A stretch of 57,078 bases of DNA, taken from assembly GCA_020429585.1 (NCBI GenBank), contig JAGQLE010000020.1, positions 1 to 57,078 on the forward strand, written 5' to 3'. The notes under the pieces were generated by a model. The model was given only the letters and a program-made list of their open reading frames with translations, was not told the DNA's origin and searched no databases. Positions 38,632 to 42,417 of the stretch are shown piece after piece; position 1 is the first letter of the stretch, and each line of letters begins with the position of its first letter. The stretch is from Candidatus Berkelbacteria bacterium (GTDB lineage: Bacteria > Patescibacteriota > UBA1384 > JACPKC01). A program made the position numbers and the translations under genes.

Positions 38632-38657
38632 AAAAAGACACCTTTCGGTGTCTTTTT
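38632..38657 (-). terminator. Rho-independent terminator (bidirectional in form)
   Basis: AAAAAGACACC tttc GGTGTCTTTTT. Confidence 0.8.
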
Positions 38658-38713: not shown

Positions 38714-39673
38714 TTAGCTAACAATTAGATCAGCCAAGGTAGTAGTTGCCTGCTTCTTGCGAAGCAAGTAACGGCCAGTACCACCAGCCAAGGTAGCTAA
38801 AGAAGCTAATAGAGCGATGGTATCAGCACCGGTCTTAGGAAGCTCCTTAGGTAAATCCTTATTGGAGGTTTCTACTTGAGCAATAACCTTTGAACTCTTA
38901 GACACATTTTGAGTCTGAGTTACAGTTTCGTTATTACCACCATTATTCTGGTTAACAGTAGCGGTTTGATTACCACTAGCAGTACAACTGCCAGAAGCAT
39001 CGCCGTCACCAGTGTTTACAACTGTATTAGTACAGTCGACATTCTGTGACTGGGAAATACTTGAGTTATTATTCTCGTTATTTCCGTTACCGTTACCGCC
39101 AGAAAGGTTAGACTGGTTAACAGTCGCTTCCTGATTACCAGCAGCAGCACAACTACCAGCCGCATCGCCTGAGCCAGTGTTTACAACTGTATTAGTACAG
39201 TCGACATTCTGACTCTGAGAAAGGCTTGAGTTGTTGTTTTGGTTAACGTTTTCTCCACCATTACTGGTAGAAGTGTTAGTACTAGTGTTACTAGTACCGT
39301 TATTAACCTGAGTATTGTTTGCCTGATTTGTTTCAGATCCCTGTTCGCCAGTTGAGGTACTAGTTCCGGTAGCATTACCTTCGCCAGTATTAACAACTAC
39401 GTTAGTAGCGTTAACATTTTGGGCCTGAGAAGTAGCAGCATTGTTGTTCTGATTAGTGTTGCTTGACGTACTTTCGTACGAATTAACGTTGGAGTTGGTA
39501 TTGGTATTCTCGACGGTATTAGAATTAGAGTTAGAAACATAATTTGAGTTAGTGTTACTGACTCCGTTCATGTAATCCATGCCGTAATCATTCCAATCCC
39601 AAGCGTAAGCAACGCTTGATGATCCAGCTGTTACCATCAAGGCAGTCACAAGCATAGTTGCGAATTTTTGCAT
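38714..39673 (-). CDS. LPXTG-anchored, Asn/Ser/Thr-rich repetitive surface protein
   Basis: Signal peptide MQKFATMLVTALMVTAGSSSVAYA. Three repeats of about 42 aa. C-terminal LPKTG plus the hydrophobic stretch ADTIALLASLATLAGGTG plus RYLLRKKQ. Confidence 0.75.
   Translation of the reverse strand: MQKFATMLVTALMVTAGSSSVAYAWDWNDYGMDYMNGVSNTNSNYVSNSNSNTVENTNTNSNVNSYESTSSNTNQNNNAATSQAQNVNATNVVVNTGEGNATGTSTSTGEQGSETNQANNTQVNNGTSNTSTNTSTSNGGENVNQNNNSSLSQSQNVDCTNTVVNTGSGDAAGSCAAAGNQEATVNQSNLSGGNGNGNNENNNSSISQSQNVDCTNTVVNTGDGDASGSCTASGNQTATVNQNNGGNNETVTQTQNVSKSSKVIAQVETSNKDLPKELPKTGADTIALLASLATLAGGTGRYLLRKKQATTTLADLIVS
38948..39448 (-). repeat. three tandem coding repeats (about 42 aa each), copies 2 and 3 near-identical at DNA level
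   Basis: NNN(A/S)(A/S).SQ(A/S)QNV..TN.VVNTG.G.A.G....G.Q....NQ. Copies 2 and 3 each carry two Cys (QNVDCTN...GSC). Confidence 0.8.
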
Positions 39674-39790
39674 AAGATATCACCCACTTTCTTAGGTTGC
39701 ATTTTTCGCTAGTATCGACTCCGCCCCACTGGCGGATTAGCGACCTCTCCATAAACTTTTACTTTCCCAAAGCCAATTTTTTAGCTTCAG

Positions 39791-39829
39791 GAAGAAAAAG
39801 TGGAGGTTGCGTCCGTAGACGCAACCTCC
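39791..39829 (-). terminator. Rho-independent terminator after the 302-aa secreted-protein gene
   Basis: Perfect 12-bp stem GGAGGTTGCGTC/GACGCAACCTCC with a tetraloop, followed on the minus strand by ACTTTTTCTTC. Confidence 0.8.
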
Positions 39830-39886
39830 TGGCGGATGACCCCTCAGTCAACCTTGCGGCCCAGAGCCGAAGCTCCGGACCTAATT

Positions 39887-40795
39887 TTATATACCGTTGT
39901 TTTGGTCGACCCCGGCGCCTTGTTGGCCAGTGCCGGTTGCCGAACCATCAACGTTGCCACTACCGGTGTTAATCAGAACGTTAACCGGAGTCACGTTCTG
40001 AGCCTGAGAGGTGGCGTTGTTGTTGTTTTGGTTGTTGTTAAAATTGGCGTTGTTATTGGTGTTCTCATTGACATTCGAAACGGTGTTCGAATTGTCCAAT
40101 GAGATCTTATTGCCGTTTTTAACAGCGGTAACTTGTCGGACGTTTACGACCGGCGGTTTTTGATTTTGATGGAAACCGATCTGGAAACTTGAAAAGTTTC
40201 CACCGATATTCCGTACTCCTCCCCCAGTCGACAAAACGCTAACTGGCGGCGCTTCCGCCCGCTGAAAAGTCGGTGGCGGCGGTTGGTAAGTTGGTGGCGG
40301 CGGTTGGTAAGTTGGTGGCGGCGTTTTTAGCCAGGTTACCTTGAGCCGCGACAGATTGCCGCAGCGCTTAGGCAAAACCCAGGTTATCACCTTGGTCGCA
40401 TTGCCCTCAGTTACCTGAACCTCAAATGCCCAAGCCTCCTGCGTCGAACCGGTTGCCAACTGAGGCGTGTACAAGGTTCTAACTTGAGAACCGTCGTACC
40501 ACCCCATCGTCTGCAAAACGATTCCATGCGGTAAACCACCTGGAACATCCTGAACAGCCCCGGACTGCAAAATTTGCAACACCGCCTGGGCAACGTCGTC
40601 ACGATGACCGGCCTGCTTAACGGCAGCCAGAATCAAATCTGGCCTGCTATTTGCAGCCCTCTGCAAGTTTTCTACCGACCAGACCGGCCCCAAAAGCGGG
40701 GCAACGCCGATCGTTCTTACAATTTGCCCCTGTGCGGCCAAAACCGGCCAAGGCAAACTAAAGAGAAACACTAATATGAGAGCGATTCGTCTCAT
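39887..40795 (-). CDS. secreted protein with Pro-rich linker and C-terminal Asn-rich repeat module
   Basis: Signal peptide MRRIALILVFLFSLPWPVLAA. PPPTYQPPPPTYQPPPPTFQ linker. The C-terminal NNNNATSQAQNVTPVNVLINTGSGN is homologous to the repeats of the LPXTG protein. Confidence 0.6.
   Translation of the reverse strand: MRRIALILVFLFSLPWPVLAAQGQIVRTIGVAPLLGPVWSVENLQRAANSRPDLILAAVKQAGHRDDVAQAVLQILQSGAVQDVPGGLPHGIVLQTMGWYDGSQVRTLYTPQLATGSTQEAWAFEVQVTEGNATKVITWVLPKRCGNLSRLKVTWLKTPPPTYQPPPPTYQPPPPTFQRAEAPPVSVLSTGGGVRNIGGNFSSFQIGFHQNQKPPVVNVRQVTAVKNGNKISLDNSNTVSNVNENTNNNANFNNNQNNNNATSQAQNVTPVNVLINTGSGNVDGSATGTGQQGAGVDQNNGI
40272..40323 (-). repeat. 21-bp perfect tandem repeat, about 2.5 copies, coding
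   Basis: GGTGGCGGCGGTTGGTAAGTT x2, then GGTGGCGGCG. It encodes the (P)PPPTYQ repeats. Confidence 0.9.
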
Positions 40796-41853
40796 TTCCC
40801 ACCTCTTCCTACCTGAATAAGCTTAAACCTCACGGCACCATCAGGTACCAAGGTCTTACTGTAGCCTTGGTTGTAGTTGTCCGGGGCAAACTGCCATTGT
40901 TGGTCGGCTTGCTCAACAAGGATCCTTACCTCCCCCGAGGGGATATTGTCAAATGCTGCCAAATCAGTTCCGGATGAAGACATCCTCGAAACGACCTGGC
41001 CGTTGACTTCAACGATAACATCAGGATTGCCACCCATATAGGGGGCTCCATTGGCTTTATTGAAGTTAACGCATACCCGACCGGATCCGGTCTGAGCTTC
41101 TGGCCGTTGGTAACTGCAATCACTGGCCTCAGCTTGCTGGCTCGGCGGATCGTTTACTTTTAAGATCCGAACCGGCGGCGCTTCGCCCGTGGCTGACTTG
41201 ACGATAAAGTGACCATCACTAGTCTCCATATTCGTCATGTACTTGTACAGTTCCAGATGCTCAGCCGTGTAACCCTTGTTAGGGTTAACCAAGTTGAGCA
41301 CAAAGCCATCTTCGGCATCGATTTCCCGCTTTCGACGAAAACGAAAGATCAAAACCTGAGTCGTGGCTTCGCCTCCCATATGTTTAAGCTGATAATCGAT
41401 AAAATGACGGCCAGCGGGCAAACTTGAGAGGTCGAGTAAGTAGCCACCGAGATCCTCCCGGCGGTCCACCATACCCAAACCGTCAGCGGTTTGGACAGTG
41501 ATGTTCTCGTGGGTGATCTCGTCTGCATTAATCGCAAAAAACGAAACCACCACCCAGCATTTGCCGTTGGGATTACTAGGTGAATAACGGGGCAACGTGA
41601 TCTCTGCCAGGTTAGAAGCCTGGTAAAAATCCGGTCCGCCGTCTTTAGCCCAGCGGTCTTCTCTGGTTGGAGCGTGACCATCAGGAGTGTAGTAAAACTC
41701 CACATTGTGGTTACCACTCGTTCCAGCCGGCTTGACAGTGTCGTAGGTAGACACGCTGCCTGCGACGTTGGCCAAACTTTGGGCCGATACTGGCGTTGAT
41801 GCGATCATGACCGCAAACATCACCAGTGCGGCTACATTTAGGTTTCGTTTCAT
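40792..41853 (-). CDS. secreted hypothetical protein (353 aa)
   Basis: Signal peptide MKRNLNVAALVMFAVMIASTPVSA. Strong GGAGGAGG RBS. ATGA overlap with the downstream gene. Confidence 0.6.
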   Translation of the reverse strand: MKRNLNVAALVMFAVMIASTPVSAQSLANVAGSVSTYDTVKPAGTSGNHNVEFYYTPDGHAPTREDRWAKDGGPDFYQASNLAEITLPRYSPSNPNGKCWVVVSFFAINADEITHENITVQTADGLGMVDRREDLGGYLLDLSSLPAGRHFIDYQLKHMGGEATTQVLIFRFRRKREIDAEDGFVLNLVNPNKGYTAEHLELYKYMTNMETSDGHFIVKSATGEAPPVRILKVNDPPSQQAEASDCSYQRPEAQTGSGRVCVNFNKANGAPYMGGNPDVIVEVNGQVVSRMSSSGTDLAAFDNIPSGEVRILVEQADQQWQFAPDNYNQGYSKTLVPDGAVRFKLIQVGRGGK

Positions 41854-41921: not shown

Positions 41922-41946
41922 AAAAAAGCGATCCGGAACAGATCGC
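41922..41946 (-). terminator. intrinsic terminator inside the leader region
   Basis: GCGATC tgttccg GATCGC followed by T6 on the minus strand, about 70 nt upstream of the 41853 start codon. The adjacent CGCAA/TTGCG hairpin (41944..41956) shares 3 nt with its stem. Confidence 0.6.
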
Positions 41947-42246
41947 AAATATTGCGTTTGGAAAAAAGCCTTCCCTCACATTAGTTTTTTAGGTTCTGCC
42001 CCTTGAGTACATATAGTTTATGTTCTCTCCGGGCCTGCTCCTTTGGCAGAGAGATAATTACTCTCTCTGTTCTGACCAAGCAAGGTTAGCAAGCTAACCC
42101 AGACCCAGGGGCAGCAGGGAAGGAGGGGCACGTAGGCAAGCAAGCTCACCTACACTCTCCACTGCTCTTAGTCAGAACAGAACGAATAATTTCTTAAAAA
42201 CACCCAGATCCCTCCAGATGCTTTTTATTATCTTACTTTAAAAAGA
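41922..42246 (-). ncRNA. candidate structured leader RNA or sRNA (unclassified)
   Basis: It is bounded by promoters (42227..42281) and a terminator (41922..41946). An 11-bp closing helix (42066..42076 with 42171..42181) encloses two hairpins with GCUUGC-containing loops. A competing 8-bp hairpin lies at 42047..42069. Confidence 0.35.
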
Positions 42247-42281
42247 CTTGTCAGTCTAGCACTTTTTTATCTTGTCGTCAA
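42227..42281 (-). promoter_or_regulatory. two tandem sigma70-like promoters
   Basis: Minus strand: TTGACG (42281..42276) - 17 nt - TAGACT (42258..42253), and CTGACA (42254..42249) - 16 nt - GATAAT (42232..42227). Confidence 0.5.
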
Positions 42282-42329: not shown

Positions 42330-42417
42330 GTCATCTCGACTAAGTGACGGAGGAACGCATCGAGAGATCCCTACGCAACAGATCTCTCGATTACGCTATC
42401 GCTCCACTCGAGATGAC
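42330..42417. repeat. 88-nt nested palindromic element
   Basis: Outer 10-bp stem GTCATCTCGA/TCGAGATGAC and inner 11-bp stem ATCGAGAGATC/GATCTCTCGAT (42359..42391). Confidence 0.7.

Follow-up and report, generated by a model that had tools for sequence, protein, structure and literature searches.

A conserved cassette for three exported proteins, two of them with a shared Asn-rich module, in the cysS–prfB interval of a Berkelbacteria genome: a candidate surface display system

The 57,078-nucleotide (nt) contig JAGQLE010000020.1 of a Candidatus Berkelbacteria bacterium (assembly GCA_020429585.1), hereafter referred to as the window, carries three consecutive genes, here named g1, g2 and g3, on its minus strand, with cysS upstream and prfB downstream. 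The window is contig C9 of a genome (G000) of 790 kb in 55 contigs which is rated 99% complete. An initial annotation, made from the letters of the window only, had described g1–g3 as a block of secreted or surface proteins ending in a sortase substrate, and the gene coordinates and product lengths that it gave (353, 302 and 319 amino acids (aa)) were recovered exactly (Table 1). The stop codon TGA of g1 and the start codon ATG of g2 share the nucleotides ATGA, and the gap between g2 and g3 is indeed delimited by a strong terminator-like hairpin with a T run. Inspected by eye, all three products possess classical, Sec-type leaders with a basic N-terminus, a hydrophobic core and an AXA-like cleavage site (VSA/QS, VLA/AQ and AYA/WD in the three leaders). 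The Pro-rich linker and the Asn-rich C-terminal part of g2 were likewise found, as were the composition and the tail attributed to g3: N, S, T, G and Q make up 61% of the whole protein and 68% of its mature part, and the chain ends in LPKTG, a hydrophobic stretch and RYLLRKKQ. These analyses supported the view that the three products form a functional unit of exported or surface proteins, and we propose below, tentatively, that this unit is a surface display cassette.

Table 1. Features of the g1–g2–g3 locus and of the gap upstream of it. Positions refer to the window.
Feature	Position	Strand	Description
Likely terminator after g3	38632-38656	minus	hairpin AAAAAGACACC-GAAA-GGTGTCTTTTT and T run, read from the sequence
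g3	38714-39673	minus	319 aa; leader, Asn/Ser-rich spacer, three modules, short stalk, sorting signal
Cell-wall sorting signal of g3	38714-38842	minus	LPKTG (residues 278-282), 18-residue hydrophobic stretch, RYLLRKKQ, tail ATTTLADLIVS
g3 module 3	38939-39082	minus	Cys pair
g3 module 2	39104-39250	minus	Cys pair symmetrical about the NTGSG turn (C-x15-C)
g3 module 1	39311-39460	minus	no cysteines
Intrinsic-terminator-like hairpin in the g2/g3 gap	39802-39829	minus	stem of 12 pairs, 8 of them G-C, and a T run
g2	39887-40795	minus	302 aa; leader, variable globular N-domain, Pro-rich linker, Asn-rich spacer, one C-terminal module
g2 module	39893-40039	minus	single copy at the extreme C-terminus; module profile E=7e-19
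g2 linker TPPPTYQPPPPTYQPPPPTFQ	40256-40326	minus	(PPPPTYQ), from three 21-nt direct tandem repeats
C-[GA]-N motif of g2	40355-40363	minus	Cys-Gly-Asn, residues 145-147; last part of the head, adjoining the linker
g1	40792-41853	minus	353 aa; leader (about residues 1-24), orphan N-domain, putative C-terminal beta-sandwich
C-terminal domain of g1	40804-41100	minus	about residues 250-350; putative, remote prealbumin-like (SpaA-type) beta-sandwich, from profile search and hhalign
Structured RNA gene	41928-42281	minus	promoter-like sites 42281-42227, core 42069-42178, terminator 41946-41928; neighbour of the cassette
Palindromic repeat element	42330-42417		88 nt, nested, downstream of cysS

The block had initially been taken to interrupt an otherwise housekeeping stretch. 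Instead, the cysS–prfB slot turned out to be conserved for these genes across the whole family and beyond. On the contigs of relatives, a g1-like gene and, close behind it, a g2-like gene precede one for a repeat protein that contains ELPKTG, in most cases with cysS and prfB as the flanking genes, and the wider order topA-recR-(Zn-ribbon open reading frame)-cysS-RNA-g1-g2-g3-prfB-ybaB-pth-rplA is kept. In the genome-wide searches, the scope of which was species-representative genomes, seven of the nine further genomes of the same family (f1) were matched by a g2 profile, the 152 genomes from the rest of the class gave no match, and looser inspection revealed a diverged cassette of the same architecture in G068, a member of another f1 genus, and in G080 and G079, which belong to family f25. 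The block is a conserved cassette and not an insertion peculiar to this genome. Recent foreign insertion of the block as a whole was rejected in view of the conserved synteny, and the idea was kept for the g1–g2 pair only (see below). Judging by its contig name, one of the cassette-bearing relatives comes from Hainich groundwater.

The last gene of the cassette, g3, encodes a leader of the form MQKF…AYA/WD and, at the opposite end, a tail that passed the TIGR01167 (LPXTG_anchor) model with 19.1 bits (cut-off 15.9); the score with PF00746 (17 bits) was under the cut-off of 20. This is the sole canonical LPXTG tail in the genome. The g3 orthologues keep EL[PLV]KTGA, the hydrophobic stretch, the basic residues and an (A)DLIVG-type tail, with P, L or V tolerated at position 2 of the signal (LLKTG and LVKTG variants). 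Canonical LPXTG signals stop at the basic residues, so that a conserved extra tail is unusual; here, 7-11 residues beyond the basic patch (nt 38714-38746 in the window) are conserved in the orthologues as …ADLIVG/S, …SLIVG or …ALVA. Taking these sequence features together, anchoring of g3 to the wall by a sortase is likely.

As had been noted initially, the window itself holds no sortase gene. The possibility that the genome lacks one altogether, in which case LPKTG would have been fortuitous, was dispelled by contig C6, where the sole sortase gene of the genome was located (C6:4663-5604; PF04203, 86 bits at C6:5104-5502; TIGR01076, 55 bits with a cut-off of 39). Sortase genes were present in ten out of ten genomes of the family, with one to four in each, and the sorting signal of g3 is kept in orthologues of about 50% identity, which makes g3 a credible sortase substrate. 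Sortases have been reported in more than half of the genomes of the candidate phyla radiation (CPR) (PMC6744442). Two further proteins of the genome end in a comparable manner, namely a 528-aa PKD-domain protein, whose C-terminus comprises LIATG, a hydrophobic stretch and then a basic residue, and a paralogue-like protein of 941 aa (C15:6700-9525) with an LASTG end built in the same way. Both are likely to be additional sortase substrates, with a residue other than proline at position 2. Their tails suggest that the sortase of this genome may accept L-x-x-T-G, in agreement with the LLKTG and LVKTG signals among the g3 orthologues.

The most telling feature of the locus is one that g2 and g3 have in common, a module of about 45 aa that is polar, of low complexity, rich in Asn, Gln and Gly and free of aromatic residues (consensus xxNQNNNSSTSQSQNVxxxTTVVNTGSGxAxGSxxAAGxQxxxTxQxN). 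In a 50-column alignment, 9 columns were invariant and 8 nearly invariant, and the module is the best-conserved part of both the g2 and the g3 families. The genome contains exactly four copies: apart from the three in g3, there is only that of g2. Counts for g3 and g2 were 3+1 in G062 and 2+1 in G066; across the orthologues, g3 has two or three modules, and g2 always has a single one, always at its extreme C-terminus. Matches of the module profile were confined to f1 genomes, both among 401 genomes sampled across the phylum and among 162 genomes of the class. No Pfam family was matched by 25 isolated modules (E<=10), and no PDB sequence by the module profile; more specifically, neither the chaplin (PF03777) nor the Curlin_rpt (PF07012) model matched g2 or g3 at E<=1 or the 25 modules at E<=10. 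Our search of the literature yielded no paper describing the module or the cassette. In a related cassette (L006 2392-2685), g2 and g3 are separated by an additional gene for a secreted protein of 97 aa with one degenerate module, possibly a "short" form that consists of the module alone.

In AlphaFold2 (AF2) models of g3, each module was predicted to be a long two-stranded beta-hairpin with its turn at NTGxG, with predicted local distance difference test (pLDDT) values of 55-67 for the modules, a modest confidence. Where a module has a Cys pair, the two residues are 16 positions apart and symmetrical about this turn. A cross-strand disulfide would place the cysteines in just this way, and their spacing thus gives support for the hairpin that does not depend on AF2. 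The Cys pair of the last g3 module is kept in all orthologues with the main type of module. The genome encodes two copies of VKOR and two DsbA-like proteins, so the Cys pairs of the modules can be oxidised; the presence of these genes matches a CPR-wide pattern (PMC6744442). At one signature position, Pro is found in the g2 module, Cys in the last g3 module and Ala in the first g3 module, which argues that the copies are specialised and not interchangeable spacers. Modules 2 and 3 of g3 arose by recent duplication, since they are 81% identical at the nucleotide level; 27 of 37 codons are shared.

We also compared the modules of g2 and g3 among genomes. Three sequence-distinct types were discerned: the main f1 type, the type of G068 (…QTNNxNQNGxGNAASxTNxGAQ…) and the f25 types of G080 and G079 (…NINQQxTxVNxANANNAGG…). 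In the differing types, the g2 tail scored far higher with the g3 encoded in the same genome than with any other g3 (145 vs. <=58, 94 vs. <=48 and 128 vs. <=84). An NNQN-N-TNQAQ variant is common to g2 and g3 in G066, and to both g3 modules of G065. In the window, the g2 module is identical to the g3 modules at 22-27 of 44 residues, of which only 8-11 use the same codon. The codon comparison did not support recent gene conversion as the source of this likeness, which is therefore preserved at the level of the protein.

Turning to the rest of g2, AF2 predicted a head (residues 33-157) of three helices and a five-stranded sheet, with pLDDT values of 63-87. The heads of the g2 family fall into at least three types that are unrelated by BLAST. 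A C-[GA]-N motif was nevertheless found in 12 of 13 proteins at the g2 position, covering all three head types; the exception is a C-terminal fragment of one of them. In the window, the cysteine of this motif, Cys145, is the only one in g2, and candidate roles for it are those of a free thiol, an intermolecular disulfide or a reactive residue. An independent assembly of the same population (Logan, from a public run; L002 8001-8888) was 100% identical over 9.6 kb with one 21-nt linker repeat fewer, which reflects either a length polymorphism or an assembly collapse.

The statement that none of the three proteins has an assignable motif held for Pfam, NCBIfam and PHROGs, where nothing was found apart from the LPXTG anchor of g3, and for PDB sequences, among which the g1 and g2 profiles had no relative; the one amendment concerns a possible, remote prealbumin-like (SpaA-type) domain at the C-terminus of g1. 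A Foldseek search of the PDB with the g2 model gave nothing under E=0.6, and no confident homology of g1 or g2 to ordinary wall or periplasmic enzymes emerged from the family, profile or fold searches. Relatives of g2 amounted to a handful among 5.8 billion proteins. For g1, an exhaustive profile search of 1.84 billion representative proteins returned 41 matches, about ten of them full-length; a word-indexed homologue search with g1 alone returned g1 itself only, and a metagenome scan with the g1 profile returned nothing. With the g3 profile, low-complexity candidates overwhelmed a search of the same word-indexed kind. C-terminal positions of the g1 profile matched multi-repeat SpaA/SdrD_B/CarboxypepD_reg proteins with E-values down to 1.5e-20, and hhalign related this region to the SpaA-type family PF17802 with 63% probability (E=7e-5), which is a remote relationship; direct Pfam scans of four family members were empty. 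The SpaA-type domain is a stalk domain typical of Gram-positive surface proteins.

Base composition and the nearest relative set g1–g2 apart from g3. The GC content of g1 and g2 was 51-52% (55-58% at third codon positions, GC3) and that of g3 was 42% (GC3 36%), with 44% for the whole genome. In the nearest relative found (L038), prfB, ybaB and cysS are 90%, 94% and 77% identical to those of the window, the RNA upstream is nearly identical and g3 has the same sorting signal, and a g1–g2 pair that is unrelated to that of the window occupies the same site. Pairs of the window type were otherwise encountered in more distant, GC-richer relatives, at 32-45% identity. The types of g1 and g2 mostly co-occur, with G061 and G062 as exceptions. 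The simplest reading would be that the g1–g2 unit, including its module-bearing tail, was replaced by recombination, with g3 and the flanks native, because the pair of L038 is unrelated at the same site and g1–g2 is locally GC-rich.

Our preferred reading, to which we assign a rough probability of 0.45, is that the block is a conserved, lineage-specific surface display cassette in which g3 is anchored to the wall, g2 is docked on it by the shared module and g1 is a partner of g2. After export by the Sec pathway, g3 would be cleaved at LPKTG by the single sortase and linked covalently to the wall, where its two or three modules would stand out as long beta-hairpins rich in Asn and Gln, with a disulfide clamping the hairpin nearest the wall. 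Exported separately, g2 would consist of a variable head, a Pro-rich spacer and one module at its free C-terminus, and this tail would dock non-covalently on the modules of g3 by a like-with-like pairing of beta-sheets (cross-beta or strand augmentation). We infer this docking from the exclusivity of the module to the two proteins, their co-variation, the likeness maintained at the protein level and the position-specific signatures. In turn, g1 would probably be held by the g2 head as a partner subunit, given the translational coupling of the two genes, the lack of an anchor in g1 itself and the co-occurrence of g1 and g2 types. Speculatively, the exchangeable g1–g2 heads may serve contact or recognition, of a host cell or a substrate, or may form a phage-exposed surface. 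Wall anchoring, the docking of g2 on g3, the complex of g1 with g2 and any adhesive role are thus all inferred, and a cell-contact structure or adhesin, which had been proposed initially, is plausible.

Several observations weigh against this reading. The AF2 models of g2 and g3 are of low confidence (mean pLDDT of 50 and 47, respectively), and g2 beyond residue 157, its tail included, was predicted to be disordered as a monomer. The best Foldseek matches of the g3 model among 350,542 PDB chains were FapC (E=7e-3) and CsgA (E=1.4), with TM-scores below 0.2, and are not significant (for the CsgA fibril 8enq, the TM-scores were 0.06/0.12). Among genomes with the main type of module, some g2 tails have a closer counterpart in the g3 of another genome than in their own, and the g2 tail of G061 has no clear match to G061 g3; moreover, co-variation would also be expected if g2 and g3 bound one lineage-specific third partner. 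With regard to anchoring, the sortase fits no curated sortase class and its gene lies directly downstream of that for another likely substrate, the PKD-domain protein (both within C6:3084-5604). To our knowledge, no CPR sortase has been characterised so far.

An unlikely alternative is that the module serves for polymerisation, so that g2 and g3 would not form a small stoichiometric complex but join in extended cross-beta fibrils or a functional-amyloid layer on the surface, for which g3 would be the wall-bound nucleator. In Streptomyces, free short chaplins have been proposed to co-assemble with anchored long ones, tethering the assembly to the wall (PMC5618241), and the architecture of a multi-copy anchored and a single-copy free protein recurs here: like the long (ChpA-C) and short (ChpD-H) chaplins (PF03777), g3 combines three modules with LPKTG and g2 has one module and no anchor, and in both systems some modules have a Cys pair. 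The Asn/Gln/Gly-rich composition, the predicted long beta-hairpins and the fact that the two top Foldseek matches, neither of them significant, are functional amyloids also fit such an assembly. There is no sequence relationship to chaplins, however, whose domains are hydrophobic whereas the module described here is rich in Asn, Gln, Ser, Thr and Gly, and the free partner, g2, has 302 aa, including a folded head of variable type, where a free chaplin is a peptide of about 55 aa; Streptomyces is a filamentous actinomycete, and the bearer of the cassette an ultra-small CPR bacterium. Curli (CsgA/CsgB) and Fap (FapC) likewise consist of imperfect Asn/Gln/Gly-rich strand-turn-strand repeats, and in them, too, a surface-bound repeat protein is proposed to template a secreted one, but their repeats are about 20 aa long compared to about 45 aa here, secretion genes of the CsgE/F/G or FapF type are missing from the cassette, and the organism is presumed to be monoderm. 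A folded head of about 125 residues together with long spacers, as in g2, would be expected of a displayed payload more than of a subunit of fibrils; there is only one module per g2, the genome has no separate short, module-only protein, and the chaplin and curlin Pfam models went unmatched.

Less probable again is that the module binds a common third partner, either a lineage-specific glycopolymer of the wall or a ligand on the host surface, and that g2 and g3 do so independently of each other. C-terminal, non-covalent wall-binding modules such as GW, SLH, LysM and WxL are common in surface proteins of monoderms, and binding to one partner would account for the co-variation of g2 and g3 just as docking does. 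Against this, wall-binding repeats would be redundant in a g3 that is already anchored covalently, a polar, low-complexity module without aromatics is unlike typical carbohydrate-binding repeats, and general wall-binding modules usually tag several proteins, while this one is found nowhere else in the genome. The least probable of the accounts considered is that there is no specific interaction at all, the Asn-rich stretches being spacers or stalks, possibly glycosylated, and g1 and g2 being secreted enzymes or effectors in which the Cys of C-[GA]-N is catalytic or reactive and which just happen to be encoded in one operon neighbourhood with an anchored stalk protein. The many N-x-S/T sequons readable in the sequence, the predicted disorder of the g2 tail and the invariant Cys that ends every type of g2 head would be in line with it. 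A spacer would hardly be expected to be the most conserved part of both families, with 9 of its 50 columns invariant and another 8 nearly so, when the actual spacers vary freely; furthermore, the codon comparison indicates constraint at the protein level, C-terminal position and copy number are strictly kept, and no enzyme family or fold was detected for g1 or g2.

In the way that it would work, the display cassette that we favour is most like two systems, the chaplins described above, in which free short forms join anchored long ones, and the WxL pilus, to which a tip adhesin is attached by an invariant C-terminal module; it is related in sequence to neither. In its leader and in the succession of LPKTG, hydrophobic residues and basic patch, g3 resembles canonical LPXTG substrates of Gram-positive bacteria, and the genome supplies a sortase; unlike them, g3 has the extra conserved tail of 7-11 residues, its orthologues have L, V or P at position 2 and the sortase belongs to no curated class. 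In the WxL/Elr pilus, adhesins are composed of a variable N-terminal payload and an invariant C-terminal attachment module, and a small LPXTG base and non-covalent complementation of beta-strands have been described (bioRxiv 10.64898/2026.10.17.759780; PMC1534035); the WxL pilus is reported from Bacillota only (bioRxiv 10.64898/2026.10.17.759780). Our cassette shares with this system (ElrA-E, with a DUF916 chaperone and the LPXTG base ElrB) and with the Csc clusters of Bacillota the organisation as a surface-protein operon with a small LPXTG base, but it has no separate major pilin, and the anchored g3 itself carries full copies of the attachment module. No WxL domain in g1 or g2 and no DUF916/DUF3324 chaperone in the three genes was detected with Pfam, and a 314-aa protein elsewhere in the genome that looked like DUF916 had no Pfam match.

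Apart from type IV pili, host recognition and attachment by CPR bacteria are largely unknown (PMC11623550), and the cassette offers a concrete, testable candidate: a single anchored base, a presumed docking module that occurs nowhere else in the genome, and a pair of head proteins that has been exchanged even among close relatives. Should the docking hold, the module would be a new protein-protein attachment module in the surface toolkit of monoderms, the logic of a variable payload, an invariant attachment module and an LPXTG base would have arisen independently in CPR, and the cassette would provide a marker with which host-range determinants could be tracked in metagenomes. If it were not real, g3 would be an ordinary sortase substrate beside two orphan secreted proteins. 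A wider claim, which we regard as possible though less likely than not, is that the cassette embodies a new, non-covalent display principle of CPR, in which exchangeable two-protein payloads are plugged into a sortase-anchored "socket" of Asn/Gln-rich beta-hairpin modules, each payload by one co-evolving copy of that module and homotypic cross-beta docking. Under such a principle, the head for host contact or recognition could be replaced by recombination while the anchor stays, possibly a general route for CPR episymbionts to build and diversify their contact surface.

The large gap upstream of g1, to which the initial annotation had also drawn attention, is real and spans 681 nt, yet it is not a leader of unknown kind: it is filled by a conserved structured RNA gene and a palindromic repeat element. 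The RNA had a fold z-score of -5.2, and 11 of its 33 predicted pairs showed compensatory changes in 11 sequences; the minus strand was fixed by G-U pairs, a promoter-like site and the terminator. No Rfam family matched on either strand. It is a single-copy gene, present in nine of ten f1 genomes (that of the window included) and in six genomes of other families (151 searched), and its usual place is right after cysS; the copy of G061 immediately precedes prfB and is on a contig other than that of the cassette. It is probably not part of the cassette and most likely an independent RNA gene, the cassette being placed between it and prfB. The idea of a dedicated leader of the cassette was weakened by its single-copy nature, by prfB or other genes following it elsewhere and by the separate contig in G061. 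An identity as signal recognition particle (SRP) or 6S RNA, which suggested itself because the genome yielded neither of these, was rejected, as there was no Rfam match, the RNA was assigned to the minus strand and the fold is a multi-helix junction and not the SRP hairpin. An invariant UGCCCCUCCUUCCC stretch of the RNA resembles an anti-Shine-Dalgarno sequence.

SRP RNA (RF00169, RF01854) and 6S RNA (RF00013) were not detected in the genome, and are either very divergent or unassembled; RNase P RNA was located on contig C36. Between the terminator of the structured RNA and g1, a distance of 75 nt, nothing promoter-like was revealed by a scan, so that g1–g2 may be transcribed by read-through. 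At the other end of the cassette, the hairpin downstream of g3 was not listed by a consensus terminator scan and was seen on direct reading. Finally, the palindromic element downstream of cysS represents a small dispersed repeat family, since partial copies (arms of 38-40 nt, 88-92% identity) occur on at least six other contigs (C8, C21, C16, C27, C33 and C3).

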